This document shows positions 8 through 18,805 of a stretch of 32,000 nucleotides of DNA, piece by piece; position 1 is the first letter of the stretch, and every line of letters begins with the position of its first letter. Under the pieces are notes generated by a model, which saw nothing but the letters and a program-made list of their open reading frames with translations, ran no database searches and was not told the origin of the DNA. Origin of the DNA: Synechococcus sp. Cruz-7E5 (GTDB lineage: Bacteria > Cyanobacteriota > Cyanobacteriia > PCC-6307 > Cyanobiaceae); the NCBI RefSeq assembly GCF_024345995.1, contig NZ_JAGQCE010000003.1:112759-144758 (forward strand), written 5' to 3'. Position numbers and translations under genes: made by a program.

Positions 8-1894
8 GTGGCGGAAAAACTGCTCACTGCCCCTCCAGAGGGCGTACGCCAAAGCGTACTGCTCTTGGTTCTCGTCTGGGCTGGTTTCGTTGCGGCATCA
101 GCAGGGGAGAAGAGGGCTTCGTGCCAGAGCACCCCTTCTCGCCAGGATGATGGCCTCAATGTCAGGGCCCCAGGCCGCCCAACACCCGAGAGACCCGTGA
201 CGACAACAGTTCCCGCAGCAGTTCTGACAACAAGCTTCGCGGAGTTTGCCCAACGGGCCGACTATTCGCTGCTGGATTCACTGCATGCGGATCCTCAGGC
301 GAGCGGCGATGGCCACGATCACCGGCCCCGCCAGGTGTTCTCCGGTCATTACGTGCCGGTGACTCCAACCCCGCTTCCAGCGCCGGAGTATGTGGCGCAC
401 AGCAGAACCCTGTTCCACGAACTGGGCCTGAGCGATGGGCTGGCCCACGACGATCAGTTCCGCCGTCTGTTTTCAGGCGACATCTCGGTGGCGCAGGGGC
501 CGATGCGCCCCTTCGGCTGGGCAACCGGTTATGCCCTGTCGATCTACGGCACCGAATACATCCAGCAGTGCCCGTTCGGAACCGGCAACGGCTATGGCGA
601 TGGCCGGGCCATTTCCGTGTTCGAAGGCGTCTTCAACGGCAGACGCTGGGAGATGCAACTGAAAGGTGGTGGCCCCACGCCCTACTGCCGCGGCGCCGAT
701 GGACGGGCGGTTCTCCGCTCCAGCGTGCGTGAGTTTCTGGCGCAGGAGTTCATGCACGCCCTGGGGGTTCCCAGCTCACGCTCCCTGACGCTGTATGTGT
801 CCGGGTCTGAAACCGTGCGCAGGCCCTGGTACTCACCGAACTCCAGGTCGTTCGATCCCGACATCATGGTGGACAACCCTGCGGCGATCACCACACGAGT
901 GGCGCCATCGTTTCTGCGGGTCGGCCAGCTGGAGCTGTTCGCCCGTCGCGCCCGCAGCGAGGCCCATCCGGGTGCGCTGAACGAGCTGCAGATGATCGCG
1001 AGTCACCTGATCGAGCGGAACTACCGGCCGGAGATCGATCCGAGTCTGGATTTCAGCGATCAGGTGGTTGAGCTGGCGGGATTGTTCCGCACGCGGCTCA
1101 TCTCACTTGTGGCCAACTGGATGCGGGTTGGCTATTGCCAGGGCAATTTCAACAGTGACAACTGCGCCGCGGGTGGGTACACCCTCGACTACGGACCTTT
1201 CGGATTCTGCGAACTTTTCGATCCCCGCTTTCAGCCCTGGACCGGAGGCGGCGAGCATTTCAGCTTCTTCAACCAACCGGTGGCCGCCGAAGCCAATTAC
1301 CAGATGTTCTGGTCAGCCATCCGGCTGCTGCTCGAGGGCAACACCGAGGCAGTGGCGCGGCTGGATCAGATCCAGGGCGACTTCAGCGAAGCGATGAACC
1401 GGGAAATCGAGGCGATGTGGGCCGGGAAGCTCGGGCTGACCACCTATGACGCCGCGCTGGTGAACGAGCTGCTGGAGCTGATGGTGCTCTCCAAGGTGGA
1501 TTACACGATCTTCTTCCGCAGGCTGTCTGCCATTCCAGAGGATCTCTCTGCCTTGAAAGAGAGCTTCTACCTGCCCAGTTCAGAAGAGCTCGAGGTGCGA
1601 TGGACGCAGTGGCTGCAGCGCTGGCGGGATCGTGTCACGGCAGGTGGCGACACCAATGCGACATCCGCAGCGATGAAACGGGTGAACCCCGCGATCACCT
1701 GGCGCGAATGGCTGATCGCACCGGCCTATGAACAGGCGGCGCAGGGTGACTTCAGAGCGATCCAGGAGCTGCAGGCGGTGTTCAGCCATCCCTACGAGGA
1801 GCCATCCGCGGAGCTGGCGGCCACGTACGACCGCCTGAAGCCCAGGGAGTTCTTCAACGCCGGGGGGGTGTCGCATTACAGCTGTTCGTCGTGA
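8..1894 (+). CDS. selO: Protein adenylyltransferase SelO (YdiU/UPF0061 family)
   Basis: 628-codon ORF with SelO-family blocks along its length ('[10 protein letters not shown]', '[25 protein letters not shown]', '[28 protein letters not shown]'). The ORF is open to the window edge and an in-frame GTG at 197 is an alternative start, so the 5' end is uncertain. Confidence 0.85.
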
Positions 1895-1935
1895 GGCTGT
1901 TCGTCGGGAGGCGATTCCGGTCGGGCTGAGCTCAC

Positions 1936-2341
1936 TCAGCCATCGATCAACCAGAGGGCCTCGCGGCCGGCGGCCACCGCGAAATGGAGATCACTCCTCA
2001 GGATCCGCAGGGACAGGCGACTGACACCGGTCCAGTCGTTGCGCAGCAGCTCCACGATCGACACTGTGCTGGCGCCGAATCGCAGGCCGCGCAGCAGAAA
2101 GCAGCCGAACGTCTCCAGCCGGGGCGTACCGGGACTCGTGATCGGCTGCTCTCCGGGCAGTCGGCGGCGGTGCTGCTCCGGCTCTCCCAGAGGAACAGGG
2201 AGGGACTGGGGGCCGGGTCTTGGTAGCGCGTGGAGGGGGACATCAGGGCTTGGCGCCGGAACACGCCTTGGCGGTGGAACCAGGGCGCCGTCGCGCAGGA
2301 TCCCGAAGCCGCCAGGGTTCTGCGCAGCAGTGATCCAGTAT
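1936..2341 (-). pseudogene. Divergent, heavily decayed fragment of a DUF3427-type helicase C-terminus (stub S1)
   Basis: Shifting minus-strand frames give 'WFHRQGVF..SPSTRYQD..SLFLWES'. This parallels 'WIHREGVL..FSPTTR*RD..SLFHWES' in stub S2 and 'GREGVLF..FSPTTRYNDY..WEFHWES' in the helicase at 8312. The DNA block at 2180-2203 is nearly identical to 2983-3006. The left limit is uncertain. Confidence 0.35.
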
Positions 2342-2521
2342 TCAAGTTGCGCCGAGGCTGGCGAGAATCTTGCGGGCCAGCGGTTCCTTGATTTCGTTGT
2401 GTCTGGGGATAGCTTCCTTGACGCCAGATGCTGGGTTGATCCAGATGGAGTGTGAAGCTCCTTCCCGTTTAAGAACACATCCAGCCATGCGTAACCGCCG
2501 TTCCAGATCACGGCGTTTCAT
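2342..2521 (-). CDS. hicA: HicA family mRNA interferase toxin (59 aa, absent from ORF track)
   Basis: Translation: MKRRDLERRLRMAGCVLKREGASHSIWINPASGVKEAIPRHNEIKEPLARKILASLGAT. It has the HicA 'GSH' core and a 'PRH..EIKEPL.RKIL..LG' tail, as in E. coli HicA. Its ATG overlaps the hicB stop (ATGA at 2518-2521). Confidence 0.8.
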   Translation of the reverse strand: MKRRDLERRLRMAGCVLKREGASHSIWINPASGVKEAIPRHNEIKEPLARKILASLGAT

Positions 2522-2736
2522 CCGATCTGCAGAGGCATGCGCACGGCATCGGTTGGCAGGCCACGGCTGATATCAGCCTCACGATCTTCAAGCAGCAGCT
2601 CAATGGCGGACTGCAGATCCTTTCTTGCTTCTTCCATGGATTCTCCCTGGCCGTTAGCTCCGGGAATCTCCAGGCAGATCGCCCAGAAGCCACCCTCCGG
2701 AGCTGGCTCGATCACGGCAGTCAGTTCCCCCTTCAT
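2518..2736 (-). CDS. hicB: HicB family antitoxin (UPF0150-like)
   Basis: 'MKGELTAVIEPAPEGGFWAICLEIPGANGQGESMEEARKDLQSAIELLLE' is the typical HicB N-domain. The ATG at 2736 is preferred over the TTG at 2763 used by the ORF track. It is translationally coupled to hicA. Confidence 0.75.
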   Translation of the reverse strand: MKGELTAVIEPAPEGGFWAICLEIPGANGQGESMEEARKDLQSAIELLLEDREADISRGLPTDAVRMPLQIG

Positions 2737-2838
2737 CAAACCAGCCTCATTACCACATTCCAATCAGTTTAGGTTCAGCAAAAAGTGGCAGCAGTCAGGG
2801 AGGCGACCAGGCGCCCTCTCTTGACGCGTTGCCCCCCT

Positions 2839-3140
2839 TCAAACCGCCAACCCCATCCCCTGCATCCACCCCGCCGGGATCGCCCTATCCAGCCGCCAGC
2901 GAATCGCCATCGGCCGTTCCCCCTGGTGGCGCACATACCGCGCAAAGCCCAGACACCGAAACGGCTCGGCCTCCCTCGCGCCGGCTCTCCCAGTGGAACA
3001 GGGAGGGGCCGAGGGCCAGGTCGCGCTAGCGGGTGGTGGGGGAGAAGAGGGCTTCGCTCTTGCGCAAGGTGATGAACATCAGGTCGGTGGCGCTGGGCTG
3101 GTGAGCGAGCACGCCTTCGCGGTGGATCCAGGGGGCGTCG
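2839..3140 (-). pseudogene. Helicase 3'-end stub S2 (DUF3427 C-terminal fragment with an in-frame stop and a frameshift)
   Basis: The minus strand reads 'WIHREGVLAHQPSATDLMFITLRKSEALFSPTTR*RDLALGPSLFHWES..'. After a frameshift it continues 'GFARYVRHQGERPMAIRWRLDRAIPAGWMQGMGLAV*'. This is collinear with the C-terminus of the 8312 helicase. Confidence 0.6.
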
Positions 3141-3150
3141 GCGCAGCCTT

Positions 3151-3326
3151 CTAGACGAGAAGCAGTGGGCCGCTGTCGCCACTTTCAGGGTTGGGGGACT
3201 GTCTTCGCAGCACCACATGGCTGCCTTTCTGACGCACGATCTCGAAACCGAAGCAACTCAGGCAACGTTGACCTCGTCTTCCCGGTACAGGATCGCCGTG
3301 AGGCGCTTGGGGGTGGCGGTCGTCAT
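3151..3326 (-). pseudogene. Decayed hicB'-hicA' remnant (antitoxin N-terminus fused to toxin core by deletion)
   Basis: The minus strand from the ATG at 3326 reads 'MTTATPKRLTAILYREDEVNVA*' (HicB-like start). In another frame, 3249-3151 reads 'GFEIVRQKGSHVVLRRQSPNPESGD..*' (HicA/YcfA core 'RQKGSH'). Confidence 0.4.
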
Positions 3327-3484
3327 GGTCGCCGGGGTGGTTTGACCTTCAGTCTGGCTGGTCTCAAACCGGCAACGCCACGTTGAGGGGCGCTGCGGCA
3401 GAGCCGGCGCCGCGGATCCCGTAGAAGCCGGCATGAGAGCGCAGGCTTGGTCTAGACTCGATATAGATCAGCTGTGGGGGTGTC

Positions 3485-3745
3485 ATGCGCGCCAAGTTGT
3501 TCCGCAACGGTCGCAGCCAGGCGGTGCGGCTGCCCGCCGAGTTCCGCTTCGAGGGCACGGAGGTGGAGGTGCATCGCGATCCCGAGAGTGGCGCTGTGGT
3601 GCTCACACCGGTGCGGCCATCGGCCCGCGCCTTGCTGGATCAAAGGGACGCCCTGCTGCAGGAGCCTGGCTTCCAGGCCGAGCTGGAAGCGTTTTTCGAG
3701 GGGTTGCGCGACACGCGCCCTGCGGAACCGGTGGAGTTCCTCTGA
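3485..3745 (+). CDS. vapB: VapB-type antitoxin (AbrB/SpoVT fold)
   Basis: 'MRAKLFRNGRSQAVRLPAEFRFEGTEVEVHRDPESGAVVLTP' is the classic AbrB-type VapB N-terminus. Its stop overlaps the vapC ATG (TGATG). Confidence 0.85.
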   Translation: MRAKLFRNGRSQAVRLPAEFRFEGTEVEVHRDPESGAVVLTPVRPSARALLDQRDALLQEPGFQAELEAFFEGLRDTRPAEPVEFL

Positions 3746-4143
3746 TGGCTGCGGCAAATGGGAGGCTGATGCTCGACACCAACGCCGTGAACGCCTTTCT
3801 GAAAGGCCTGTCGCCACGGCTGGATACCTGGGTGCGTGAGCAACGCTGTTCCCTGTCATCGATCGTGGTGGCGGAGATCCGTTACGGCCTGGAGAAGCTG
3901 CCGCCAACGTCGCGGTTGCAAGCGCTGGTGGAGAACACCCTCAAGACCCTGGAGATCCTGCCCTGGTCAGAAGCCTGCGCCAGGGTGTACGGCCGACTGC
4001 GGGCCGATCTCGATCGCAACGGGAAGCCGTTGGCGGCGATGGATCTGCTGATCGCCAGCCATGCCCTCAGCGAAGGTTGCGCCCTGGTGACGGCGGATCA
4101 GGCCTTTGCCAATGTGGCCGATCTGCACCTGGAGTCCTGGTAA
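3745..4143 (+). CDS. vapC: VapC PIN-domain ribonuclease toxin
   Basis: 132 aa starting 'MAAANGRLMLDTNAV'. PIN acidic residues are present (LDTN, AEI, MDLLIA, VTAD). The start lies inside the longer track ORF 3433..4143, in the same frame. Confidence 0.85.
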   Translation: MAAANGRLMLDTNAVNAFLKGLSPRLDTWVREQRCSLSSIVVAEIRYGLEKLPPTSRLQALVENTLKTLEILPWSEACARVYGRLRADLDRNGKPLAAMDLLIASHALSEGCALVTADQAFANVADLHLESW

Positions 4144-4198
4144 TGGCCAGCAGGCAGGGGTTGGCCAGGTGCCTTCCCGCTTGGCGTTGTGCCCCCCC

Positions 4199-4410
4199 TC
4201 ACACCGCCACCGCCAACTCCGGATAGAAGGCCCCCGGAATCGCCCTGTGCAGCCGCCAGCGAATCGCCATCGGCCGCTCGTCCTCGTGGCTCACGTGATC
4301 AGTAAAGCCGAGGCAAAGGAAAGGCAGTGTCATACCGTCCCGGTTACTTAGCGGATGGCGACGTCGTTGTAGTGGGTGGTGGTGGCACCGTTAAGAAGCT
4401 CCTCTTCGAC
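4199..4410 (-). pseudogene. Helicase 3'-end stub S3 (internally deleted)
   Basis: The minus strand reads 'GMTLPFLCLGFTDHVSHEDERPMAIRWRLHRAIPGAFYPELAVAV*' with an intact frame for about 48 codons. Upstream, 'gatggcgacgtcgttgtagtgggtggtgg' matches helicase 8585-8612 after an internal deletion. The stub ends 2 nt from the hicA stop (4413). Confidence 0.65.
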
Positions 4411-4412
4411 CA

Positions 4413-4625
4413 TCACAGCAGCTGGCGGAACTGCTCAGGCGTCAGACCTGCATCGCGCGCAATCGCGCCCATGGTGATGGCGTTGATGGGGTCATGTCTT
4501 GGGATCACCAGCCGACGCTCGCCATTGCTCAGGATCAGATGACCCGACTCGCGGACAATCCGATACCCCAGCTTCAGAAACACCCTCACGGCTTCCTTCT
4601 GGCTGATTCCAGGCAGACGTGGCAT
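4413..4625 (-). CDS. hicA: HicA/YcfA family toxin
   Basis: 'MPRLPGISQKEAVRVFLKLGYRIVRESGHLILSNGERRLVIPRHDPINAITMGAIARDAGLTPEQFRQLL' shows YcfA-like HicA architecture. It directly follows its hicB partner with no gap. Confidence 0.8.
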   Translation of the reverse strand: MPRLPGISQKEAVRVFLKLGYRIVRESGHLILSNGERRLVIPRHDPINAITMGAIARDAGLTPEQFRQLL

Positions 4626-4823
4626 TTAGAGAGCGAGTTCCATCGTCTCCACGCTGCGCACGCCACCCTCCTCCGCTTCTACTTCCAGCCAGAGGGCAAT
4701 CGCTTCGCGGATGTTCGCCAGTGCTTCGTCCCTGTTAGCTCCCTGGGAGTGGCAGCCGGGCAGGTCAAGACAGCTCACCGACCAACCCTCTTCGGTTTCC
4801 AACAGCCGGATGCGGTAGCTCAT
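4626..4823 (-). CDS. hicB: HicB-like antitoxin (UPF0150)
   Basis: 'MSYRIRLLETEEGWSVSCLDLPGCHSQGANRDEALANIREAIALWLEVE' is a typical short HicB/UPF0150 protein. Confidence 0.75.
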   Translation of the reverse strand: MSYRIRLLETEEGWSVSCLDLPGCHSQGANRDEALANIREAIALWLEVEAEEGGVRSVETMELAL

Positions 4824-4899
4824 GCCGGTCTGACTCCCTGACCTGCGTTCAGGCTAAGGGCATGGAGCTGGCCTCTGTACCGAAGCCTCCCAGCCCACC

Positions 4900-5020
4900 T
4901 CAAACCGCCACCGCCAGCTCCGGGTAGAAGGCCCCCGGAATCGCCCTGTGCAGCCGCCAGCGGATCGCCATCGGCCGCTCGCCCTCGTGGCTCACATAAT
5001 CGGCAAAGCCGAGGCCAAGC
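4900..5020 (-). pseudogene. Helicase 3'-end stub S4
   Basis: The minus strand reads 'GLGFADYVSHEGERPMAIRWRLHRAIPGAFYPELAVAV*'. It has an intact frame and is near-identical in protein sequence to the end of the 8312 helicase. Confidence 0.7.
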
Positions 5021-5085
5021 TCACGCCATGGACGGTGGTGATGGAGAGGGGATCCATCCTGTCTTTGGATGAACTCGGCCAATGG

Positions 5086-5439
5086 CTAAGCAATGGGAGG
5101 ATCCTTGCCCAACGCAGCCAATAGAGAGCTTCTCAGACCTGGGAGGTCATTGTTGATCGAATCCCAGAGAATCAGCTGATCCACGGCTTCGTACACATGG
5201 ATGATTCTGTTCCGTGTTCCAACGATGCGGCGTAGATCGGGAATGATCGTGAGCACACTCGGATCGGCCTCAAGGGCCCGCTTGAGAGCCTCGCCAATGA
5301 TTTCGAATTTGCGCTCCACCGCTGATTGGATCAGCTCATTGTCAAGGTAGTGCTCAAGCGTGCAGTTCTCGATGAAGCGTCCAATCGCCTCGATGGCCTC
5401 AAGGGCGTCAAGCAGGCGTTTCAGCGCCTCTCTTCGCAT
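5086..5439 (-). CDS. hepT: HepT (DUF86) HEPN-type toxin
   Basis: 117 aa with the Rx4HxY motif 'GTRNRIIHVYEAVD'. It lies immediately downstream of its MNT partner. Confidence 0.8.
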   Translation of the reverse strand: MRREALKRLLDALEAIEAIGRFIENCTLEHYLDNELIQSAVERKFEIIGEALKRALEADPSVLTIIPDLRRIVGTRNRIIHVYEAVDQLILWDSINNDLPGLRSSLLAALGKDPPIA

Positions 5440-5440
5440 T

Positions 5441-5767
5441 TCAGAGTTCCAGGATTAGCCGGCGTGACGCGTCCACGTCTTTCCGGAAATAGGGATTGTG
5501 GATCATGGATTCCGTCAGGAGATCCACCGGACGGCCGAAGAGGGCTTCCAATTCATCGGCGAAGGAACAGAAGCGTCGTGCATAGCCCGGTTCCCGTTGG
5601 CCCGTCATCTGCACGATGAAGTCCAGGTCACTGCTGGCAGGGTCAAACAGGCCCTTCGCTGCCGAGCCGAACACTTCCAGCCGATCCACGCCGTAACGGT
5701 TGCACAGGTGCCTGAGCGGCTCCAGCCGATCGGCCAGCAAGGGCAGCAGCGGGGCAACCGTGTCCAT
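5441..5767 (-). CDS. mntA: MntA-type nucleotidyltransferase antitoxin
   Basis: 'LEVFGSAAKGLFDPASSDLDFIV' carries the GS...DxD minimal nucleotidyltransferase motif. Confidence 0.8.
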   Translation of the reverse strand: MDTVAPLLPLLADRLEPLRHLCNRYGVDRLEVFGSAAKGLFDPASSDLDFIVQMTGQREPGYARRFCSFADELEALFGRPVDLLTESMIHNPYFRKDVDASRRLILEL

Positions 5768-5797
5768 GGGGTCAGGTTAATGGAGCTTTCGGGTCCT

Positions 5798-5876
5798 TCA
5801 TACCGCCAAGGCCAACTCCGGCACGAACGCCGCCGGGATCGCCCTGTGCAGCCGCCAGCGAATCGCCATCGGCCGC
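5798..5876 (-). pseudogene. Helicase 3'-end stub S5 (shortest, 26 codons)
   Basis: The minus strand reads 'RPMAIRWRLHRAIPAAFVPELALAV*'. It ends 5 nt from the doc stop (5882). Confidence 0.7.
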
Positions 5877-5881
5877 CAACC

Positions 5882-6230
5882 TCATCCCAAGGGCTTGATC
5901 TGCTCCTTGACCCACTCGGTCCATGCCTGCCGATCAAGCGTTCCGGAGGCCACAGCAAGAACAACAGCTTCGGTGGATTCTTTGGAAGCGGTCAACTCAT
6001 AGCTGTTGAGCATGAGCATCACCTCCATGGCTGCGTGGCCGACACGCTTGTTGCCATCCACAAAGGGATGGTTCTTGATCAGGGAAAAGCCTAGAGTGGC
6101 AGCCTTCTCGATGAGAGTGGGATGGAGATCAACACCTGAAAAGGTCTGACGGAGCTGGGCGAGTGACCCTTCCAAGAGACGAAGGTCTCGCAATCCGGGG
6201 GAACCCCCGGAGGCGGAGATAGCGAATCAC
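5882..6230 (-). pseudogene. doc: Doc (Fic-fold death-on-curing) toxin, probably inactivated by a 5' deletion/frameshift
   Basis: The Fic motif 'HPFVDGNKRVGHAAM' is present. A GTG at 6230 overlapping the phd stop reads 'VIRYL', a typical Doc start. The frame then switches and 'SASGGSPGLRDLRLLEGSL' follows only about 6 codons later. About 14 codons seem to be missing. The only in-frame start is the TTG at 6193. Confidence 0.6.
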
Positions 6231-6421
6231 GCCAGACGTCGGTAAAGCTCCTCATTTTTTGCCAGCACGTTCGATGCGGCTGCTTCGAAGTCTGCGGATG
6301 GTCGGCTCAGGAGATCGCGTACGGCGGCCGAGGCCAGGACCTCCTGAGACACGTTGAGCAGCCCGGCCACCTCGGCCAGGGCACGGGACTGTTCTTCGTT
6401 GAGCTCAATGGCGAGGGCCAT
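6227..6421 (-). CDS. Phd-position antitoxin (small, helical/RHH-like)
   Basis: 64-aa ORF directly upstream of doc, with its stop overlapping the doc GTG: 'MALAIELNEEQSRALAEVAGLLNVSQEVLASAAVRDLL...ELYRRLA'. The family assignment rests on position only. Confidence 0.6.
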   Translation of the reverse strand: MALAIELNEEQSRALAEVAGLLNVSQEVLASAAVRDLLSRPSADFEAAASNVLAKNEELYRRLA

Positions 6422-6478
6422 GGCAGACCTCCTGAGCCAGAAGGATAGGAGAGGTCGAAAGGGGATCGCCGCCCCCCC

Positions 6479-7521
6479 TCAAACCGCCAACGCCAACTCC
6501 GGCACGAACGCCGCCGGAATCGCCCGGTGTAGCCGCCAGCGAATCGCCATTGGCCTCTCGCCCTGGTTGCTGACGTAATCGGCAAAACCGAGGCAAAGAA
6601 ACGGCAGCGTCACCCCGCCGCGCTTGTTCTCTTCTCGCACAAACAGCAGCACCTTGCTGCCGCGCTCTCGGTGGTGGATATATCTCTGCCCGGTGGCGGA
6701 CGCTTCCCGGGTGAGGCTCTGGCTCTCCCAGTGAAACTCCCACGGGGAGATGGCGTAGTCGTTGTAGCGGGTGGTGGGGGAGAACAGGCGCTCACTCTTC
6801 TTGAGGGTGATGAAGAAGACGTCGCACTGAGTGGCCCGATCGAACAACACCCCCGACTGGCCGGTGGTTTGCTGAGTATCGGTGATTAATCCAAAGGCGG
6901 CATAGATCTCGGCGCGGCTGTAGCGGGCGTGGAGGGCCAGGGGCACGGGCTGATCCAACGCCAGGGGAGGGGCGAGGTGGTCGGTGCGCTCCAACAGGAG
7001 TGCGAACAGTTCGCGCAGCTCATTGAGAAAGGCTCGACAGGCCCAGAGGCGATCCAGCGCGTCTTGCAGACCAAGCCGAACAGGCGACGTTCCCCAGAGC
7101 TGGAGCAGCAGCATGCGCCAACGCCGGCGGTCCAACTCGCTCAGGTTCTGCACCTCGGGTGGCTGTCCATGGGCGAGGCCCTGCAGGAGGAACGAGAGGC
7201 GGTCGGTGTCGTCCAGGTGGAGGAGGCGCCCCACTCCCCCAGCTCCATCCCAAGCCCCTCCAGCAACCCCGCCAGCGAGCAGCGCCCGAGCCGGCGAGCT
7301 TCGGCGAGCAGCTGGGGCCGGCGCGTGGGCAGCGACTCGCGCAGGTTCGCCAGCACCCGCTCGCTCGACACCCGATCGAGTTGCAGGCTGCAGCCGGCGG
7401 GCAGGAAGGGAGACCCGTCTTTGATCTGCTGCTCCAGCTGGTCGCGCGTGCCGCCGAGCAGGGCGAGGTAGCGCAGGTCGAAGCGGAAGTTCCGGTGGGC
7501 CTGGCCGATGAAATCGAGCAT
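6479..7521 (-). pseudogene. Helicase paralog fragment S6 (C-terminal ~345 codons; frameshifted, 5'-truncated)
   Basis: It aligns by eye with 8312-9480, from 'LDFIGQAHR.FRFDLRY' through 'FITLKKSE.LFSPTTRYNDYAISPWEFHWESQS' to '..ERPMAIRWRLHRAIPAAFVPELALAV*'. There is a net deletion of about 126 nt and a frame change near 7240. Homology stops at 7521, next to the mnt start. Confidence 0.8.
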
Positions 7522-7547
7522 CGTGGCCTGCTGGTTGAAGCTTCGCG

Positions 7548-7889
7548 ATGATGAAGCCCATGACCACCACGCCGACCCCTCTGGTGACCCGCGAAGCGCT
7601 GCAGGCGTTCACGCAGCGGCTGGTGGAGCGCTACGCCCCTGAGAAGGTGATCCTGTTCGGTTCTTTGGCTCGTGGAGAGGCGCGCTGGGATTCAGATGCC
7701 GACGTCCTGGTGGTGATGCCCTTTGAGGGCCGCCACCTGGCCAAGATCCGTGAAATGCGCCGACTCTGCCAGGTGCGATTCCCCCTGGATCTCCTGGTCC
7801 GGCGGCCGGAGGAGATTGAGGTTCGTTATCGGGGGGGTGATCCGGTCGTGCGCGAGGCGCTTGACCATGGCGAGGTGCTGCATGGCTGA
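7548..7889 (+). CDS. MNT-type nucleotidyltransferase antitoxin
   Basis: 'VILFGSLARGEARWDSDADVLVV' is the minimal NTase motif. It overlaps the downstream HEPN gene by 8 nt. Confidence 0.8.
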   Translation: MMKPMTTTPTPLVTREALQAFTQRLVERYAPEKVILFGSLARGEARWDSDADVLVVMPFEGRHLAKIREMRRLCQVRFPLDLLVRRPEEIEVRYRGGDPVVREALDHGEVLHG

Positions 7890-8286
7890 ACCCTGGTCGG
7901 CGGTTCCGGAGTGGATAGCCAAGGCTGAGGGCGATTGGGAAGCCCTTGAGATCCTCCTGACCAGGAACAGCCCAGGCTTGCGAGATGCGGTGGTGTTTCA
8001 CGCCCAGCAATGTGTGGAGAAACTCTTCAAGGCACGGTTGATCCAGCTCGGGCAGACGGTCGACAAGATCCATGACCTGGCCACCCTGTCTCGCCAGCTG
8101 GAAGCTGTGGATCGCCAGTGGAGCTGGGATGGTGAGGAATTGGCTGATCTCTCCTCAGGAGCGGTGCTCGCTCGCTACCCGGGTTTTGAAACCTCAGCAG
8201 AGGAACAAGCAGATCTTGTGCAGATCGCCAGCAAGCTCAGGCAGGCCCTGAGGATCCTGCTTGGCTCAGAGCAGCAGGAAGAGTGA
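7882..8286 (+). CDS. HEPN domain protein (toxin partner of MNT)
   Basis: 134 aa starting 'MAEPWSAVPEWIAKAEGDWEALEILL', with 'HAQQCVEKLFKA', 'KIHDLATL' and 'ARYPG' typical of PF05168-type HEPN. The start is internal to track ORF 7723..8286. Confidence 0.8.
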   Translation: MAEPWSAVPEWIAKAEGDWEALEILLTRNSPGLRDAVVFHAQQCVEKLFKARLIQLGQTVDKIHDLATLSRQLEAVDRQWSWDGEELADLSSGAVLARYPGFETSAEEQADLVQIASKLRQALRILLGSEQQEE

Positions 8287-8311
8287 ACAAAACGACTGAT
8301 GTGGTTGGAGC

Positions 8312-10723
8312 TCACACCGCCAACGCCATAACCGGCACGAACGCCCCCGGTATCGCCCTGTGCAACCGCCAGCGAATCGCCATCGGCCGCTCGCCCTCGT
8401 GGCTCACGTAATCGGCAAAACCGAGGCAAAGAAACGGCAGCGTCACCCCGCCGCGCTTGTTCTCCTCCCGCACGAACAGCATCACCCGGCTGCCCCGCTC
8501 GGCGTGGTGGATGTAGCGCTGGCCCGTGGGTGAGGCTTGCCGCGTGTTGCTCTGGCTCTCCCAGTGGAACTCCCACGGGGAGATGGCGTAGTCGTTGTAG
8601 CGGGTGGTGGGGGAGAACAGGCTCTCGGACTTCTTGAGGGTGATGAAGAAGACGTCGCACTGGGTCACCTCATCGAACAACACCCCCTCACGGCCGGGGA
8701 AAGGCCGGGCGTCGTTAAGCAGGCCGAAGGCGGCGAACACCTCGGCGCGGGCATAGCGGCCGTGGAGTTTGAGGGGGATAGGGCTTGGATCGCTTCGGCC
8801 CCAGTCGAGCGGCGCCACCAGGTGGTCGGTGCGCTCGTGCAGGAGCGCGAACAGCTCCAACAGTTCGGCGCGGAGGGCGGCGGCAGCCCAGAGCCGGACG
8901 AGGGCCTCGGCCAGGGGCACGTGCTGCCGGCCGCTTCCCCACAGCTGGGCCATCAGCATGCGCCAGCTGCGCTCGGTGACGGGATCGAAGCCCGCCGGAT
9001 CGGGCGCGAGGTGCCGCTGCAGCTGATCCGCCAGCCAGCGCAACCGCTCGGGGTCATCCAGGTGCAGAAGGCCGCCAGCGATCCCCCGCCCCAGCCGCTT
9101 CTCATCGTCGCTGGGCTCCCCTGAGGCCGCCCCAGCCGCCACCCACCCCAACTCCCGCTGCAGCAAAGCCCACGACCCCGCCACCTTGTAAAACTCCACC
9201 AGCTCCATCCCAAGCCCCTCCAGCAACCCCGTCAGGGAACAGCGCCCGAGGCGCCGGGCTTCGGCGAGCAGCTGGGGCCTGCGCGTGGGCAACGACTCGC
9301 GCAGATTGGCCAGCACCCGCTCGCTCGACACCCGATCGAGCTGCAGGCTGCAGCCGGCCGGCAGGAAAGGAAAGCCCTCTTTGATTTGCTGCTCCAGCTG
9401 GTCGCGCGTGCCGCCGAGCAGGGCGCGGTAGCGCAGATCGAAGCGGAAGCTCCGGTGGGCCTGGCCGATGAAATCCAGCACTGTGAGGCAGCTCTTGCCG
9501 CGGCAGAGGCGCAGACCGCGGCCGAGCTGCTGCAGGAACACGATCGCGCTCTCGGTGGGCCGCAGGAACAGCACTGTGTCGATCTCGGGGATGTCGAGGC
9601 CTTCGTTGAACAGATCCACGGCGAACAGGATCTGCAGCTCACCGGAGCGCAGGCGGCGGATCTGCTCGGCGCGCTGCTCCCGGGGGCTGGAGGCATCCAG
9701 GGAAGCGGCGCGCAGGCCGGCGGCCACGAACTTGCGGGCCATCCAATGGGCGTGCTCCACCCTCACGCAGAAGCCCAGGGCCCGCATCGCTTCCAGGTTG
9801 GTGACCTTGTCTGCCAGTTCGCGCAGGATCAGGCGCAGGCGGGCGTCGTCGGCGGTGTAGAGGTTGGAGAGGGCCTCGGTGGCGTAGCCGTTGCGGCGCC
9901 ACTCGACCTGCGACAGGTCGGTGCCGTCGTGGAGGCCGAAGTAGTGGAACGGGCACAGCAGGCCCTGATCGAGGGCGCTCCAGAGGCGCAACTCGGCGGC
10001 GATGCGGCCGTCAAACCAATGGAGGATGTCCTCGCCGCCGGTGCGCTCGGGGGTGGCGGTGAGGCCCAGCAGCAGGGCGGGTTCTAGGTGGTGCAGCCAG
10101 CGCTCGTAGCTGGCGGAGGCGGCGTGGTGGAACTCATCGACGATCACCACGTCGAACGTGTCCGGCGCCAGGCCGGCCGGATCCAGCCCAGCGAGCGACT
10201 GCACCGAGGCGAACACATGGCGCCACTGGCTGGGGCGCTGGCCATCCACCAGCAGCTCGCCGAAGGAGCCATCGCGCAGCACCTGGCGGAAGGTGGCGAG
10301 GCTCTGCTGCAGGATCTCGCGCCGGTGGGCCACGAACAGCAGGCTCGGGTGACCCGGACCGCCCTGGCGGGCGTAATCAAGGGCGGCGACCACGGTTTTG
10401 CCCGTGCCGGTGGCGGCCACCACCAGGTTGCGCCAGCGGCCATGGAGGCTGCGCTCTGCCGAGAGCTTGTCGAGGATCTCCTGCTGGTAGGCGTAGGGGC
10501 GGATGTCGAAGAAGCTGAGCGGGGTGGCGTCGGACGCCGACTCCGCCTACACCGCCCGATCAAAACGCCGGCCTTCGATCTCGCTGGCGGCGTAGGGCTC
10601 GAATTCGCCTTCCTCCCAGTAGCTGTCGAAGGCGGCCTGGAACTTGGAGAGGACGCCGTCGTTGTCGTGGGCGGAGAGGCGCACGTTCCACTCCAGGCCG
10701 TCGTGCAGGGCGGCGGCCGTTTT
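8312..10723 (-). pseudogene. PLD-like/SF2 helicase/DUF3427 defence-type protein, 5'-truncated with an in-frame TAG
   Basis: Helicase motifs present: 'AATGTGKT', 'VIVDEFHH', 'LGLTATPER', 'QQLGRGLR'. The DUF3427-type C-terminus is 'FITLKKSESLFSPTTRYNDYAISPWEFHWESQ'. Upstream in frame is '..LHDGLEWNVRLSAHDNDGVLSKFQAAFDSYWEEGEFEPY..RAV*AESASDATPLSFFDIRPYAYQQEIL'. The TAG is at 10549-10547. The frame closes at 10724-10726, where GC content drops. Confidence 0.85.
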
Positions 10724-10855
10724 TCAGGAGACCCTAATCATGGGTTGAATAAGTAACTTGGCGTGAAAACTTCTGTCGCGATTCGTCTGCATAGCCGCAT
10801 AATGCAGATATTGATAGACTGCTGTGGCTAGCCGCAAAACAGGCTAGAAGTCCCC

Positions 10856-11971
10856 ATGACGCTTAAACTTGTGCCTTCAATCTATGAGGTCTACGGGTTC
10901 GGACCAAATGATAATACAGCTGAAGCGCAACAAGCTCGCTTTACTGCAACTTGTCCATTTATTGGCGGCAGGTGCGATGGAGGGGGCAATAGGCATCAAA
11001 CGAAGATAAAGCTAGGAACGTCTCCATTGAGAGATAATTTTGAGCCATCACTTGATTCCGTGGTTCCCGGAATTTGTTCAATTCAACACGGAGGTACAAT
11101 TTGGGTGGTCTGTCCGCGAAGGCTGCTTGGATTTGGCGGGAGTCCCGATTCAGCTCAAGTCAACTATGCACTACAAGAGCATGAAAAAGAAGCACTTCTA
11201 GCCTCAGGTTTGCCGGCTGGTATTGAACTAGGTGTTTGGGCCGAAGTGTACCTTAACTATGGAGACGATGAAACTACAATTAACTACCACTTTGACTTTG
11301 TCATTTCCGAGCTTCATCGGAATGCCAGTTTTCATGAGATGATTGGAAGTTACGGAGCCATTGAAGATGCTGAGCATATTGATCTTGTTGCCGCAGCAAG
11401 AAAGGGGCAGTATATCCAAGGTCGCCTAGATCAAAATGCTCCGATAAGCGTGCTTCCTAATTTACAGCACCCATATATCATTGAAGTAATGACAGCGAGT
11501 ACTTCGGGTTCAGACACAAGTGCTGGAACCGACATAGCATCATCATTCAGTGACGCTATTCTTGGAAGAAGCCACAGTTGTCCGGGTATTAATAAGCGTC
11601 AAGTTTGGGGAAGAATGGCGACCCAGCTATTTGCAAAGTCTGCTTTAGCAGACGCTTGGGGCGGCAAGACTGTTTGGGTTGTTCAAGATGAACTTCTAAA
11701 GAATATAGCATTAACAACAAAGCTTGGAATGATGACTGACGGTAATATTGGAGGCGTTGACAAAATTAGCTTTGTAGGCTTGAGCTATAGAAAAGAAGAT
11801 GAAGATGGATGCTCTATGCAAGTTGTCGGCTTGCATGAAAAGAGGTCTGGACTTGATTTTGCAGGCAGTGGAAAGTGTGTGGATATACTTTTGCCAAAAG
11901 TATATCCATGCAAAAAGGAGTTGCTAAAGTCTGTTCTCAGAAGAAAACTTTCCGCCTTAATAGTACTGTAG
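10856..11971 (+). CDS. Type II restriction endonuclease, NotI-family-like
   Basis: 371 aa, AT-richer than the flanks, and convergent with a C5-methyltransferase 5 nt away. The N-terminal Cys cluster 'CPFIGGRCDGGG...GICSIQHGGTIWVVCPRRLL' and 'IIEVMTAS' resemble NotI 'CPF..C.K...GVC..DWLVCPNR' and 'LEIQTMD' (from memory). Confidence 0.65.
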   Translation: MTLKLVPSIYEVYGFGPNDNTAEAQQARFTATCPFIGGRCDGGGNRHQTKIKLGTSPLRDNFEPSLDSVVPGICSIQHGGTIWVVCPRRLLGFGGSPDSAQVNYALQEHEKEALLASGLPAGIELGVWAEVYLNYGDDETTINYHFDFVISELHRNASFHEMIGSYGAIEDAEHIDLVAAARKGQYIQGRLDQNAPISVLPNLQHPYIIEVMTASTSGSDTSAGTDIASSFSDAILGRSHSCPGINKRQVWGRMATQLFAKSALADAWGGKTVWVVQDELLKNIALTTKLGMMTDGNIGGVDKISFVGLSYRKEDEDGCSMQVVGLHEKRSGLDFAGSGKCVDILLPKVYPCKKELLKSVLRRKLSALIVL

Positions 11972-11976
11972 ATATC

Positions 11977-13077
11977 TCAAGAAATCAGTCGCTTAATCTG
12001 CTCCCCAACTGCATGTGCCAACGGCGGAGGTACAGCATTTGCTACGAGCCGGTGTTGATCAAGGTCCCGCACAGTTCCAGTTCTTGCACGGATCGGTCCA
12101 AAAAGCATATGTGAATCCGGAAAGCCATGTAGTCTCATGTATTCACGCGGAGTGAGATATCTATTGTCGGATGGATGGTAAAAGGCCTCGCCACCCCTCA
12201 ATGTAAGAGCTGGCTTACTCCACGACATTCTCCGAAACTTAGTGGTATCTTTTTCCGGATCAAGCCTCATTCGCTGATCTTTAGGCAAGTGGAATTGCCT
12301 TGCGAGGCATTCGCCTTCGGGAACACCATTGATTCTCTCCTGATCACGTTTTGGAGTGATGTCAACATGGCTAGGAACAACGGGGGTTCCGTCACCCTTT
12401 CTACAGGGCTTTGGCAAGTCCGATATCGCATCGCCAACTGTAAGATATGGAAGCAGATCGTTGAACAGGCTAGTTTGCGCACTGGCCCTGCTTGAATCGA
12501 AATGCGTAGGCTCGGGAAAGTCAAAATCGGTTAAGTCTCTCATCGCCAGTATAATTACACGGTCCCTAAGTTGAGGAGTCCCATAATCAGCAGCTCGAAG
12601 TACGCGGTACTTTACGCAATACCCAATTTCATTGAGCGATTGGATAAGGGATGCAAGAACAGAGCCACTCTTGCCGTCCTTTCCCTTCGCACTGAGTAAG
12701 CCTTTCACCTGTTCAATTAGAACAGCCTTGGGGCGAAAAGCTTTTGCGTATTCCAACATTTGATACAACAGAATACCTCTGTCGTCTTCAACAGATTTTC
12801 TACTACCAATTAGAGAAAAAGACTGACATGGGGGTCCGCCTGCAAGCAAGTCTAGTTCTCCAGATGTGATCCCCAGATCATCAAGCAGTTGGTTAGGCCT
12901 AAAGTCCCGAATGTCCCCGCCAAGCAGGGGGGTTATCCCTTTTTGCTTGCACCAGTGTTGAAGAGTTAGAAAGGCATGTTTGTCGACTTCACTGCAAAAT
13001 ATAGGTGCAAATCCAGCTCTGTGCAGACCCTCATCAAGTCCACCAATTCCACTAAAAAGTGAGATAGCAGTGAGCAC
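11977..13077 (-). CDS. DNA (cytosine-5) methyltransferase
   Basis: Motif I 'LFSGIGGLDEG', motif IV 'GGPPCQSFS', motif VI-like 'IEQVKGL', motif VIII 'QLRDRVI', motif X 'ANAVPPPLA'. Low-GC gene. Confidence 0.95.
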   Translation of the reverse strand: MLTAISLFSGIGGLDEGLHRAGFAPIFCSEVDKHAFLTLQHWCKQKGITPLLGGDIRDFRPNQLLDDLGITSGELDLLAGGPPCQSFSLIGSRKSVEDDRGILLYQMLEYAKAFRPKAVLIEQVKGLLSAKGKDGKSGSVLASLIQSLNEIGYCVKYRVLRAADYGTPQLRDRVIILAMRDLTDFDFPEPTHFDSSRASAQTSLFNDLLPYLTVGDAISDLPKPCRKGDGTPVVPSHVDITPKRDQERINGVPEGECLARQFHLPKDQRMRLDPEKDTTKFRRMSWSKPALTLRGGEAFYHPSDNRYLTPREYMRLHGFPDSHMLFGPIRARTGTVRDLDQHRLVANAVPPPLAHAVGEQIKRLIS

Positions 13078-13277: not shown

Positions 13278-13757
13278 TCAATACCCCTGCTTTCTAGCAA
13301 TTACCCCCCGCACCCCACCCCGCGGCTGCTCGCAATCCCCCTCCCGCCGTGGAATCAGATGCCAGTGCGCATGAAACAACGTCTGCCCCGCCGCCTCGCT
13401 TGAGTTCAGCCCCCCTCATGCGTTGAGCAAACCAGCCCAGCCGCTGATCGTGGCGTCCTGGGCACGCAGCTTGCTCCACCACGGCGTTCCACTCCGGCTG
13501 GTGCAGCTCCAGCCCGTCGGCCCCATGACGACGCGGGATCACCAGGCTGTGCCCCTCGCTCACGGGATAGGCATCGGCGATGCACAGCGCCAGCTCGTTC
13601 TTCAGCAGCACCCGGCCACAGCCCTCCAGCGCGCAGAACACACAGTCCGCTTCGCGGTGGCCGTAGCTGGCCTGCATACCGCGGAAGCAGAACGCCTGCA
13701 GGTTGCTGATGGCGGCGGAACCGCCATGGTTCCTAGGTGCTCCCATATCCAGGGCCA
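13278..13757 (-). pseudogene. HNH-HIT gene fragment A (3' ~480 nt, frameshifted)
   Basis: The minus strand reads '..PRNHGGSAAISNLQAFCFRGMQASYGHREADCVFCALEGCGRVLLKNELALCIADAYPVSEGHSLVIPRRHGADGLELHQPEWNAVVE'. A deletion of about 20 nt and a frame change follow, then 'FHAHWHLIPRREGDCEQPRGGVRGVIARKQGY*'. Confidence 0.7.
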
Positions 13758-13813
13758 AGCTGGGTGCTCTAAGTGCCAGTGTGCATCAATCCGGCGTATA
13801 ACAAGCGGGAAAG

Positions 13814-14686
13814 ATGGTATCCAAAGCGTCTCGAGAAATGGCTACTGACTGGTCAAGAGAGGAAGTCGCAGCAACCGTGGCGGACTACTTCGCCATGCTT
13901 GCTGCTGAACTCTCCGGGGTTCCTTACAATAAAGCAGCTCACCGGCGTGCGCTGATTAAGCGCCTCTCAGTTCGTTCGGCGCAGTCCGTTGAGTTCAAAC
14001 ATGCGAATATCAGTGCCGTACTGATTGACCTGGGATTCCCTTATATTACTGGTTACAAGCCTCGATCCAACTATCAAGGCCTGCTGCATGACGTTGTTTC
14101 CGAGAGGCTTGTATCTGATAGCCAGCTCCTGAATGTTGCGGCCGCAGATGCTGACAGGCCGATCGTGGTGCCGGAAGTTGAAGACATTCTTGGAGTGCTC
14201 ACCACACCTCCAGCCATGCAGTCCGGAGACAAGGAACCTGGTAGAGGAAGTATTCAGGCAACGCGGGCATGTATCTCAGTCAACTACTTGGAGAGAGAAG
14301 CGCGTAATCGCTCGCTTGGTACTGCTGGTGAGCTCTTTGTCTTGAACTTTGAGCGTGCAAGGCTGATCAACCTTGGCAAAGAAAGGCTAGCCGAGAAAGT
14401 CGAGCACACATCGCAAACGCGCGGCGACGGGGCCGGCTTTGACATTCTCTCTTATGAGGAGACTGGCGCCGATAGGCTCATTGAAGTAAAAACAACAAAG
14501 TATGGACGAGAAACTCCGTTCTTCGTGTCCAGAAACGAGCTTGCGGTGTCAGAATCAGAAGCATCTCGTTACTATCTCTACCGTTTGTTTGGATTCAATG
14601 TTAAGCCTCGTCTTTTCACCCTTGCTGGCGCCTTCTCGGAATCATGCAGGCTTTCTCCTTCAAGCTATCTGGCATCCGTTATCTGA
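13814..14686 (+). CDS. DUF3883 domain protein (PD-(D/E)XK-like nuclease C-domain)
   Basis: 290 aa. The C-terminal 'GELFVLNFERARL...DGAGFDILSYEETGADRLIEVKTTKYGRETPFFVSRNELAVSESEASRYYLYRLF' is the DUF3883 core. The N-terminal 'SVEFKHANISAVLIDLGFPYITGYKPRSNYQ' module recurs in restriction-type proteins. GC is lower than in the flanks. Confidence 0.8.
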   Translation: MVSKASREMATDWSREEVAATVADYFAMLAAELSGVPYNKAAHRRALIKRLSVRSAQSVEFKHANISAVLIDLGFPYITGYKPRSNYQGLLHDVVSERLVSDSQLLNVAAADADRPIVVPEVEDILGVLTTPPAMQSGDKEPGRGSIQATRACISVNYLEREARNRSLGTAGELFVLNFERARLINLGKERLAEKVEHTSQTRGDGAGFDILSYEETGADRLIEVKTTKYGRETPFFVSRNELAVSESEASRYYLYRLFGFNVKPRLFTLAGAFSESCRLSPSSYLASVI

Positions 14687-14716
14687 TCTCTTTGATGCTG
14701 GTCTACAGAGCACATC

Positions 14717-15552: not shown

Positions 15553-15698
15553 GGGGCCATCCTGGCCGGGTGAGACGGGGGTGGCACTTGTAAAGGGAGG
15601 AAACACAGGTCAGCCAGGTCGCCATGTCCAGCTCGCGATCACCCGAGCCCTTTGCCACCGCCTTGCATGCCTACGCACCACGTTGGTAGAGTCTCGAT

Positions 15699-15992: not shown

Positions 15993-15996
15993 CGTG

Positions 15997-16281: not shown

Positions 16282-16301
16282 GCACGGGTTGCGGTTCAGT
16301 G

Positions 16302-16502: not shown

Positions 16503-16582
16503 GGAGTGATGGTGGCGGCTGCCGCCCCAGCCCCCACCCAAATACTGATGACAAAAGGCACACAGGGTCTTAGGGTGTTGCC

Positions 16583-17130: not shown

Positions 17131-17152
17131 GCGTGTGGAGCTTCGTGGTTTC

Positions 17153-18794: not shown

Positions 18795-18805
18795 TCTGAT
18801 TCCAC

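Follow-up and report, generated by a model that had tools for sequence, protein, structure and literature searches.

Stubs of a SauUSI-like restriction gene alternate with toxin-antitoxin pairs in a picocyanobacterial defense island: a possible record of serial C-terminal displacement

Introduction

In this study, we analyzed a 32,000-nucleotide (nt) stretch of DNA from Synechococcus sp. Cruz-7E5 (contig NZ_JAGQCE010000003.1, positions 112,759-144,758), referred to below as the window, to which all coordinates refer. Within it, the 3' end of a gene encoding a helicase with a DUF3427 domain recurs downstream of that gene as a series of partial copies, here called stubs, which alternate with toxin-antitoxin (TA) gene pairs up to the selO gene. 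The window falls within the freshwater/brackish Cyanobium/Synechococcus 5.2 group, and its nearest helicase relative is 93% identical. An earlier note, made from the sequence letters alone, had described the stubs as displaced helicase ends that each cap a TA cassette, and had likened the pattern to integron-like or tRNA-island-like accretion.

Genomic islands with TA pairs have been reported from brackish and freshwater picocyanobacteria (PMC5498466). Literature searches returned no published description of this type of locus; the paper on the TA pairs of strain CB0101 says only that they sit in genomic islands (PMC5498466).

Results

We compared the helicase gene with the downstream 6.5 kb by BLASTN and recovered five clear partial copies on the minus strand (S1-S5, numbered from the helicase outwards; E 1e-25 to 1e-149) and a sixth, S6, that matches only in part (Table 1). 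A repeat search of the window recovered the same repeat families. The earlier note had listed six copies, each keeping the stop codon. This stands for S1-S5, in which an in-frame TGA aligns with the helicase stop, the terminal reading frame is intact and similarity to the helicase ends at the stop or a few bases further on. S6, by contrast, had been drawn from 1936 to 2341, but its helicase match is confined to about 2141-2331 (helicase amino acids (aa) 913-996); the stop assigned to it at 1936 sits in SelO-flank sequence, as 1936-1978 aligns with the SelO flank of other genomes, and its native 3' end is not recognizable. Absent from the earlier list was a mini-stub that aligns with helicase ends and mini-stubs of three other loci (L013, L018 and L021; L001 and similar labels denote the compared loci and WIN the window).

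The cassettes between the stubs are two-gene operons whose Pfam families are those of type II TA systems (HicA/HicB, PIN/MazE, HepT/MNT, HEPN/MNT and Doc), with toxicity and neutralization being predicted. The putative Doc antitoxin has no Pfam hit and was assigned by its position and by its conservation with L005 and L028. Two of the seven units lie on the opposite strand: the minus-strand arrangement holds for the cassettes apart from VapBC and MNT/HEPN, which are on the plus strand. We confirmed that in four units a toxin stop abuts the next stub within 0-10 nt (HicA at 2342, the decayed HicA-like gene at 3151, HicA at 4413 and Doc at 5882), and S1 extends to 8 nt from the MNT start codon.

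Table 1. Features of the helicase-selO array, the adjoining insert and the mirror-image array, in window coordinates
Feature	Position	Strand	Evidence and remarks	BLASTN match to helicase (minus strand)
selO (SelO, protein adenylyltransferase)	8-1894	+	Pfam SelO E 2.8e-66; conserved right-hand flank of the hotspot	
S6, decayed terminal stub	2141-2331	-	clade-B helicase aa ~913-996, blastx E 3e-13; nhmmer profile 2840-2922	2170-2247, 72%, E 2e-6
HicB1/HicA1 cassette	2342-2763 (HicA 2342-2521, HicB-like 2518-2763)	-	Pfam HicA_toxin E 1.6e-9; weak UPF0150 match	
S5, clade-B-lineage stub	2839-3143	-	terminus ...AGWMQGMGLAV, then stop; frameshifts and internal deletion	2839-2965, 78%, E 8e-25; 2983-3076, 73%, E 1e-10
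Decayed HicB3/HicA3 remnant	3151-3330	-	read from sequence	
Mini-stub (last ~20-25 nt of helicase and TGA, 3366-3368)	3366-3390	-	abuts HicB3 spacer	
VapB (MazE/AbrB-type)/VapC (PIN) cassette	3485-4143	+	Pfam MazE_antitoxin E 3e-11, PIN E 3e-16	
S4, stub with two internal deletions	4199-4410	-	BLASTN and alignment	4198-4345, 84%, and 4354-4385, 88%; E 1e-42
HicB2/HicA2 cassette	4413-4823	-	Pfam HicA_toxin E 9e-8, HicB_lk_antitox E 6e-10	
S3, 40-codon stub	4900-5019	-	BLASTN and alignment; terminal frame intact	4899-5019, 88%, E 6e-39
MNT/HepT cassette	5086-5767 (MNT 5441-5767, HepT 5086-5439)	-	Pfam NTP_transf_2 E 5e-11, HepT-like E 1.6e-18	
S2, 26-codon stub	5798-5876	-	BLASTN	5798-5876, 90%, E 6e-26
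Doc and small antitoxin-like gene upstream	5882-6421 (Doc 5882-6193, upstream gene 6227-6421)	-	Pfam Fic/DOC E 8e-14	
S1, ~345-codon stub, different recognition-domain allele	6479-7547	-	internal rearrangement at 7120-7233	6478-7120, 78%, E 1e-149; 7233-7520, 92%, E 2e-120
MNT/HEPN cassette	7548-8286 (MNT 7548-7889, HEPN 7882-8286)	+	Pfam NTP_transf_2 E 6e-10, HEPN E 1.2e-18	
Helicase pseudogene (helicase and DUF3427, SauUSI-like)	8312-10716	-	nhmmer profile 749-3150	
Low-GC insert	10856-13077	both	putative restriction endonuclease 10856-11971 (+); C-5 cytosine methyltransferase 11977-13077 (-)	
HNH-HIT full copy; 3' part	15606-14720; 13761-13281	-		
NOV_C protein (NO VEIN C-terminal, DUF3883-type nuclease-like), 290 aa	13814-14686	+	E 7e-21	
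HNH-HIT fragments	20402-20118, 19062-18889, 18037-17293, 16502-16291	-		
Mirror-array cassettes: HTH antitoxin-like gene; BrnT/BrnA	15880-16281; 16583-17130			
Mirror-array cassettes: HEPN/MNT; MNT/HepT; MNT/HepT-like	18053-18794; 19153-20042; 20415-21091			

Intact relatives of the helicase gene (L010) encode about 1050 aa with PLDc_2, ResIII, Helicase_C and DUF3427 in one polypeptide (Pfam). They match the PADLOC model mREase_IV (type IV methyl-directed restriction) with an E value of 1e-269, and the best relative of solved structure is PDB 7CLG (E 1e-79). On the strength of these matches, the anchor gene family is predicted to be that of the SauUSI-like type IV (modification-dependent) restriction enzymes. 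SauUSI uses DUF3427, at its C-terminus, as the specificity domain for DNA containing 5-methylcytosine or 5-hydroxymethylcytosine (5mC/5hmC; PMC6765204; PMC3141236). The window copy at 8312 had been taken for near-full; it is actually a 5'-truncated pseudogene that begins at position 749 of the 3150-position profile. The N-terminal third is gone, including the catalytic HKD motif of the phospholipase D (PLD) domain (the N-terminus to about aa 260 of about 1050 is absent), and a nonsense codon, TAG, lies in frame at 10545-10547.

We searched a DNA profile of the full helicase gene against 33 genomic and 22 metagenomic cyanobacterial loci (55 in total). SelO lies downstream of the helicase in most of them, and 38 of the 55 have 1-9 stubs between the two genes, giving 114 stubs. 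The interval ranges from 878 nt in L010, which has zero stubs, to more than 10 kb in L012, in which nine stubs keep a stop, and is a syntenic hotspot across Cyanobium/Synechococcus 5.2. The earlier note had proposed to look for related genomes that have no cassette, one cassette or different ones at this site, and such genomes were found among the compared loci. Among 48 helicase loci outside cyanobacteria, we found one weak downstream candidate (L050) and one more partial copy, upstream of the helicase, in L077.

The segments between stubs (n = 134) have a median length of 723 nt (10th-90th percentile 457-1482), about one TA pair. Fifteen of the 20 largest cassette protein clusters have a Pfam match, and all of these are TA families except one SelO-flank cluster; across loci the TA clusters comprise MNT/HepT, HicAB, MNT/HEPN, FitA/PIN, DUF433/DUF5615, Doc, MazE/PIN, ParE-like and HigB. 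Larger open reading frames (ORFs) in the intervals encode HipA/HipB, a glycosyltransferase, a signaling protein or SelO itself. We took family assignments from Pfam hits only, because ORF picking based on GC content at third codon positions sometimes chose antisense ORFs. Several window cassettes recur elsewhere: HicB1/HicA1 in L012, L016, L020, L024, L026 and L027; VapB/VapC, with 92-94% identity, in L011, L012 and L041; and intact homologues of the decayed HicB3/HicA3, at the same junction, in L004, L012, L023, L026 and L041.

The stubs are not local duplicates of the neighboring helicase. Over the last 40 codons, the 8312 and 6479 copies differ at 7 synonymous and 5 replacement codons, a hand count that our recount reproduced exactly. 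Codon-position counts over the last 26 codons of six copies (55/51/79) show a weak bias dominated by S5, so the longer comparison of the window helicase with S1 carries the argument for selection. Its ratio of nonsynonymous to synonymous substitution rates (dN/dS) was 0.30 over 214 codons (dS 0.63) and 0.12 over 95 codons (dS 0.24), indicating that this divergence built up under purifying selection. All window stubs are also nearer to a live allele of another genome than to the window's own helicase copy. The recognition part of S1 is 90% identical to live alleles in L017, L085 and L086 versus 73% to the window copy; the corresponding values are 96% (L029) versus 90% for S2, 92.5% (clade-B L024/L025) versus 62% for the upstream piece of S5 (3140-2981) and 89% (clade-B L020) versus 76% for its terminal piece (2970-2839), whose AGWMQGMGLAV end is the clade-B terminus. 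These results bear out the earlier proposal that the stubs diverged as functional alleles in other genomes.

We observed that the live genes are themselves mosaic. In discordant pairs, identity is 90-99% as far as profile position ~2300, falls to 52-70% between 2400 and 2800 and reaches 76-97% in the final 350 nt. Of 703 pairs, 135 had a core more identical than the recognition part by more than 0.12, and none showed the reverse by more than 0.05. The recognition end has thus been exchanged between lineages. The hypervariable block (profile ~2350-2800) is the start of DUF3427, has conserved sequence on either side, and reads as a signature of recognition-domain swapping in a predicted type IV restriction enzyme. 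As the gene tail is conserved, the stub ends all look alike.

To describe the linkage between cassettes and helicase sequence, we listed every occurrence of HicBA2 (13, in other loci), HicBA1 (8), MNT/HepT (8) and antitoxin/Doc (3). A helicase end (...TTGGCGGTTTGA) and a family-specific spacer precede the cassette in 32 of 32 occurrences, although in two MNT/HepT copies this end is decayed and has no recognizable stop. The allele of this upstream end differs between occurrences of one cassette family. On the other side, helicase sequence follows the cassette in about 15 of 25 cases as tallied by eye, at several depths per cassette (Fisher p 7.6e-5; the counts are not phylogenetically independent). 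The cassette is therefore tied to the helicase end upstream of it, and less so to the following stub that had been thought to cap it. This asymmetry indicates that the traveling unit consists of helicase 3' end, stop, spacer and cassette; the irregular joint is that between a cassette and the next stub.

The right-hand junctions illustrate this irregularity. After HicA2, helicase sequence starts from ~2609 within 0-2 nt in L004, and the same junction is found in diverged form in WIN, L002, L011, L018 and L030, the residue directly after the HicA2 stop at S4 being common to the last four; elsewhere HicA2 is followed by helicase from ~2930 (L028), from ~3056 (L026) or by unrelated DNA (L064, L021). 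HicA1 and HepT each have four or more right-hand contexts. At the primary HicA2/helicase joint, a shared CCAGCTGCT adjoins the joint and does not lie at it. Some units are conserved at both junctions: HicBA2 plus stub in six loci, HicBA3 plus stub in five, and HEPN/MNT plus stub in at least 12. The earlier note had named tandem stubs without intervening cassettes in relatives as an observation that would count against its reading, and we found this in part. In L030 (6813-11678), a complete clade-B helicase is separated by 6 nt (GGGAGG) from a clade-A stub that begins at profile position 1418, and the two have no intervening cassette. The four metagenome contigs L085-L088 have a full gene, a 100-nt HEPN/MNT remnant and a stub from position 1644.

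Across 126 helicase ends, similarity halts at the stop codon or within ~10 nt, with two families of ends sharing ~45 nt more, and the 12-nt TTGGCGGTTTGA is nearly invariant. A run of 2-13 G follows many helicase and stub stops, ahead of the cassette spacer (window 6478-6470, 4198-4190 and 2838-2831; L020 14971-14983). G-runs and shared downstream sequence had been noted before; both exist, but in the window the G-runs belong to the 6479, 4199 and 2839 copies, and the shared stretch, of ~40 nt, is between the 4199 and 2839 copies. The run may mark a tract prone to slippage or a hotspot for breakpoints. Its role as a universal insertion site was ruled out, since about half of the 126 ends lack it.

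The inner boundary does fall at a different depth in each copy, as first described, but much of this variation is secondary, since the S2 and S1 boundaries are microhomology deletions of longer stubs. S2 corresponds to a ~310-nt deletion, between GGTGGCCAGAT and GCGGCCGAT, of a longer stub of the type found in L005, which retains a fragment of a lost HEPN gene at the equivalent site. The S1 boundary reflects the loss of 94 nt between two copies of the 10-nt repeat CACAGTGCTG, in a stub whose junction residue recurs in at least 12 loci. There, the same residue, at helicase position ~1850 (CATCAT, then CGCGAAGC, then TTCAACGAG...CACGATGCT), comes after HEPN/MNT, and the deletions that follow it differ. 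Between genomes, one primary junction was also seen with differing internal deletions. The variable inner boundary is thus in part a product of erosion.

Retention is stronger at the outer boundary. Stubs starting before 2770 keep the interior (2910-3010) in ~55% of cases, and among stubs followed by a cassette ~93% keep the tail (3090-3130). The 3' end is kept in 68 of 76 internal stubs versus 16 of 31 array-terminal ones (p 4.5e-5, with related stubs treated as independent). The fixed outer boundary is selectively or mechanistically retained. The tail may hold expression signals for the next antitoxin or serve as a homology arm for the spread of units; alternatively, terminal stubs may simply be the oldest.

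The array forms one border of a defense island with the order TA pairs and HNH-HIT fragments, HNH-HIT gene, variable center, helicase, TA/stub array and selO. The center holds a GmrSD-type type IV enzyme in L001 (6908-8948), SIR2-HerA and other genes in L010 (2232-8948), and a low-GC endonuclease and C-5 methyltransferase in the window. This window insert has 42-51% GC versus ~65% around it; the methyltransferase matches Pfam DNA_methylase (E 2e-57), and the putative endonuclease ORF has no Pfam family. The helicase truncation point coincides exactly with the insert. DUF3427 enzymes are reported to be toxic to Dcm+ cells (PMC6765204), and a restriction enzyme that depends on m5C should not be compatible with an m5C methylase, which would explain why the anchor is dead in the window. 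The truncation and the insert probably reflect a conflict between methylase and methyl-directed nuclease, and look like a concrete case of two defense systems in conflict. Separately, an AT-rich segment just upstream of the helicase remnant (10730-10800, minus strand) has a translation, ...SFHAKLLIQP..., that resembles the PLD HxK motif and stands about where the helicase's own PLD motif would be expected. A foreign PLD-type gene brought in by the restriction-modification insert may have left this remnant, or the resemblance may be due to chance.

At the opposite border of the island, self-BLAST, tblastn and Pfam searches identified a second, mirror-image array (13281-21438, minus strand), in which fragments of an HNH-HIT gene alternate with TA cassettes and a NOV_C gene. 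It is also present in other Cyanobium loci, and L010 has a single HNH-HIT copy. The NOV_C gene lies between the full HNH-HIT copy and the 3' fragment, thus placing another defense-type gene in a cassette position.

Discussion

Our reading of these data, held with a confidence only a little above even, is that successive C-terminal displacements of a SauUSI-like type IV restriction gene left the array behind as their fossil record. The population would hold very divergent DUF3427 alleles in the 3' third of the gene, each upstream of its own small TA operon before selO. DNA from another strain, bearing a helicase 3' part, stop and TA cassette, would enter the cell and recombine homologously at its left end within the conserved helicase core. 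Its right end would find no homology because the variable block and the cassettes differ, and would be joined illegitimately inside the resident gene, pushing the resident 3' remainder and its cassette downstream as a stub-plus-cassette unit. Repeated rounds would then build the array. The conserved last ~80-350 nt of the stubs would act as direct repeats through which homologous recombination moves, duplicates, reorders and deletes units, and the stubs themselves would be junk, eaten by microhomology deletions, with TA pairs (by addiction) and the tail beside a downstream cassette persisting. The spread of units is supported by the varying upstream alleles, by units that are 87-96% identical at different array positions and by two diverged copies of one unit in L012. 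A homology-facilitated illegitimate recombination model of this kind has been proposed for effector-immunity arrays of type VI secretion systems (T6SS) and for Rhs orphans (PMC5361080). The mirror HNH-HIT array is what the same process would give at the other border of the island. A search of viral contigs with the helicase C-terminus returned no relative, and so gave no sign of phages carrying the units.

Several observations weigh against this reading. No recent event was found in a metagenome scan for near-identical strains, in which the best match was 93%; as the closest relatives are only this similar, illegitimate joining is inferred and not seen. The junctions are tight, lying 0-11 nt after toxin stops, 8 nt from a start codon and, in most of the 126 ends, within ~10 nt past the stop of the helicase. 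Such tightness is not expected of random illegitimate joins, and we can only attribute it to later trimming or to short native spacers. The microhomology at the HicA2/helicase junction is ambiguous, and the retention statistics count related stubs as independent. Proximal stubs are more like the resident gene than distal ones in the window, but this fails across 81 stubs, for which stub-resident identity is flat with respect to position (rho -0.08, p 0.46); the arrays are thus not simple chronological stacks. Finally, the many conserved right-hand junctions would be explained equally well by the integration of a circular cassette-plus-stub module.

Such modules are the basis of Campbell-type mobility, in which circles of TA cassette and stub excise by homologous recombination and re-integrate by a single crossover at helicase 3' ends. 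Integration would duplicate the fragment and leave full gene, cassette and stub in a row, a topology that matches exactly what is seen at both island ends. The conservation of both junctions across genomes for several cassettes (HicBA2, HicBA3 and HEPN/MNT) fits as well, and the variation of the helicase-end allele upstream of one cassette family means that crossovers do occur inside the terminal repeat. Nonetheless, we consider this route unlikely as a complete account. It does not explain how cassette-stub junctions first formed, one cassette can have several right-hand contexts, L030 has a stub with no cassette, the shortest repeats (25-80 nt) are poor RecA substrates, and no circles were observed. 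Campbell-type recombination is better seen as a way in which existing units could spread than as a full rival to displacement.

Site-specific accretion, as in integrons or in islands at tRNA genes and gene 3' ends, would require a recombinase encoded elsewhere and a core at the helicase stop such as GGCGGTTTGA. It draws on the loss of similarity at or within ~10 nt of the stop in all 126 helicase ends, on the near-invariance of TTGGCGGTTTGA, often with a G-run after it, and on the build-up of arrays from successive small units. We nevertheless regard it as improbable. No integrase or transposase was detected among the 20 largest cassette protein clusters or the scanned large ORFs of the helicase-selO intervals in the 55 loci, in keeping with the earlier remark that the array contains no recombinase, and ORFs in the rest of the window resemble housekeeping or defense genes. 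RNAalifold on 29 stub ends gave no attC-like hairpin (8 weak pairs, -2.36 kcal/mol, 0 compensatory or covarying pairs), a scan of the window found no tRNA or transfer-messenger RNA (tmRNA), and Rfam had no hit over the whole window. A sigma-70 promoter scan of 1900-8450 gave 0 hits, which is uninformative for a GC-rich cyanobacterium. Stub depths run from ~20 to ~1,700 nt, with inner boundaries spread over profile positions 1418-3100 and primary junctions at 1418, ~1850, ~2609, ~2686 and ~2700, a range incompatible with a single crossover site. Cassettes occur in both orientations, and the left array, anchored on a different gene, would require a second, unrelated site. The likeness to integrons or tRNA islands drawn in the earlier note is thus not upheld.

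The stubs might instead form a silent reservoir of recognition domains that switches specificity by gene conversion, as in pilS or silent hsdS systems. They do cover the specificity domain, the live genes are mosaic with a hypervariable block between conserved arms, and the terminal frames of S1-S5 are intact. This option appears quite improbable, as most stubs lack the hypervariable block or carry frameshifts, stops or deletions, crossing over between direct repeats removes the DNA between them, and the recipient gene is dead in the window. Local tandem duplication with divergence, or misassembly, can hardly account for the array: the repeats are direct and in one orientation, and short-read assemblies can misjoin repeats, but the copies differ by 8-38%, evolved under purifying selection and match different foreign alleles, and the same architecture, with units 87-96% identical, recurs in dozens of independent isolate and metagenome assemblies, a recurrence that together with the 8-38% divergence excludes an assembly artefact as a general explanation.

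Should displacement hold, C-terminal displacement, known for secreted polymorphic toxins, would extend to an intracellular defense gene, and the part swapped would be the domain by which a type IV restriction enzyme selects the modified DNA to attack. The history of specificity changes in a phage-defense gene could then be read from the arrays. TA pairs would arrive behind every incoming restriction allele and be difficult to shed afterwards, which offers a possible explanation of the TA pairs in these islands. The locus also provides natural material for measuring one-sided recombination, deletion bias and TA-mediated stabilization in wild populations.

More tentatively, the stub repeats and the HNH-HIT start repeats could be portable attachment sites of an integrase-free cassette platform. 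If so, ordinary homologous recombination would capture, excise, shuffle and pass between strains any unit bounded by the repeats, while TA addiction and antitoxin promoters in the stub tails would stop the array from collapsing. This would amount to a RecA-driven counterpart of the integron, stocking both ends of a defense island with modules of the abortive-infection type across a whole clade of freshwater picocyanobacteria.

Comparison with known systems

By its anatomy, the array appears to work like the Rhs, CDI (contact-dependent growth inhibition) and T6SS displacement family without being a member of it. C-terminal displacement and orphan arrays have been described for the Rhs and CdiA polymorphic toxins (Koskiniemi 2014; PMC3967940). 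There as here, a main gene has a constant 5' and a hypervariable 3' region, and behind it lie further copies of that 3' region, truncated on the 5' side and each with one or more small genes of its own downstream; the orphans correspond to alleles that are live in other strains, and the repeats permit later homologous recombination. Those systems are built on a secreted toxin with cognate immunity genes; here the anchor is a predicted type IV restriction enzyme, a DNA-recognition domain forms the variable part, and the accompanying genes are autonomous type II TA operons that can lie in either orientation. Further differences are the return of conservation at the extreme 3' end of the gene and the mirror array, made of 5' stubs, on the far side of the island. 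Jackson 2009 and Poole 2011 are also said to have dealt with Rhs/CdiA displacement and orphan arrays.

The T6SS effector-immunity arrays resemble the present locus in that serial insertion at a conserved anchor shifts old units downstream, with homology-facilitated illegitimate recombination as the proposed origin, homologous recombination for ordinary exchange and no integrase (PMC5361080). In those arrays the retained immunity genes are obviously beneficial and effector remnants are mostly lost, whereas here addictive TA pairs are retained and long coding remnants of the anchor persist. A parallel with integrons has also been drawn for the T6SS arrays (PMC5361080).

The likeness to TA-bearing superintegrons is one of outline, namely long arrays of small cassettes parted by a repeated element. 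TA cassettes are thought to guard superintegron arrays against deletion between repeats. The scanned ORFs contained no IntI, however, and there is no attC hairpin or attI; what repeats is a coding remnant, and its length varies. Integron cassettes are mostly single promoterless ORFs in one orientation, whereas those described here comprise two genes in an operon, have their own expression signals and occur in both orientations.

In tycheposons and in the accretion of cis-mobilizable elements (CIMEs) and integrative and conjugative elements (ICEs) at tRNA genes or the 3' ends of protein genes, the incoming DNA supplies a new 3' end, and the one it displaces is left behind as a direct repeat. 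In this way arrays can accumulate at one target gene, through an integrase and a fixed crossover that leave repeats of fixed length. By contrast, we found no integrase and no tRNA at the present locus, and its stubs vary from ~20 to ~1,700 nt. As with the silent hsdS copies of phase-variable type I systems, partial copies of the specificity region of a restriction gene adjoin the main gene. Silent hsdS copies remain intact, mostly lie in inverted orientation and rely on a dedicated recombinase for switching, unlike the direct, decaying copies interleaved with TA operons in this array. Collectively, these comparisons place the displacement principle among mechanisms already known; what is new here is the restriction-enzyme anchor, the recognition-domain tip and the autonomous TA companions.

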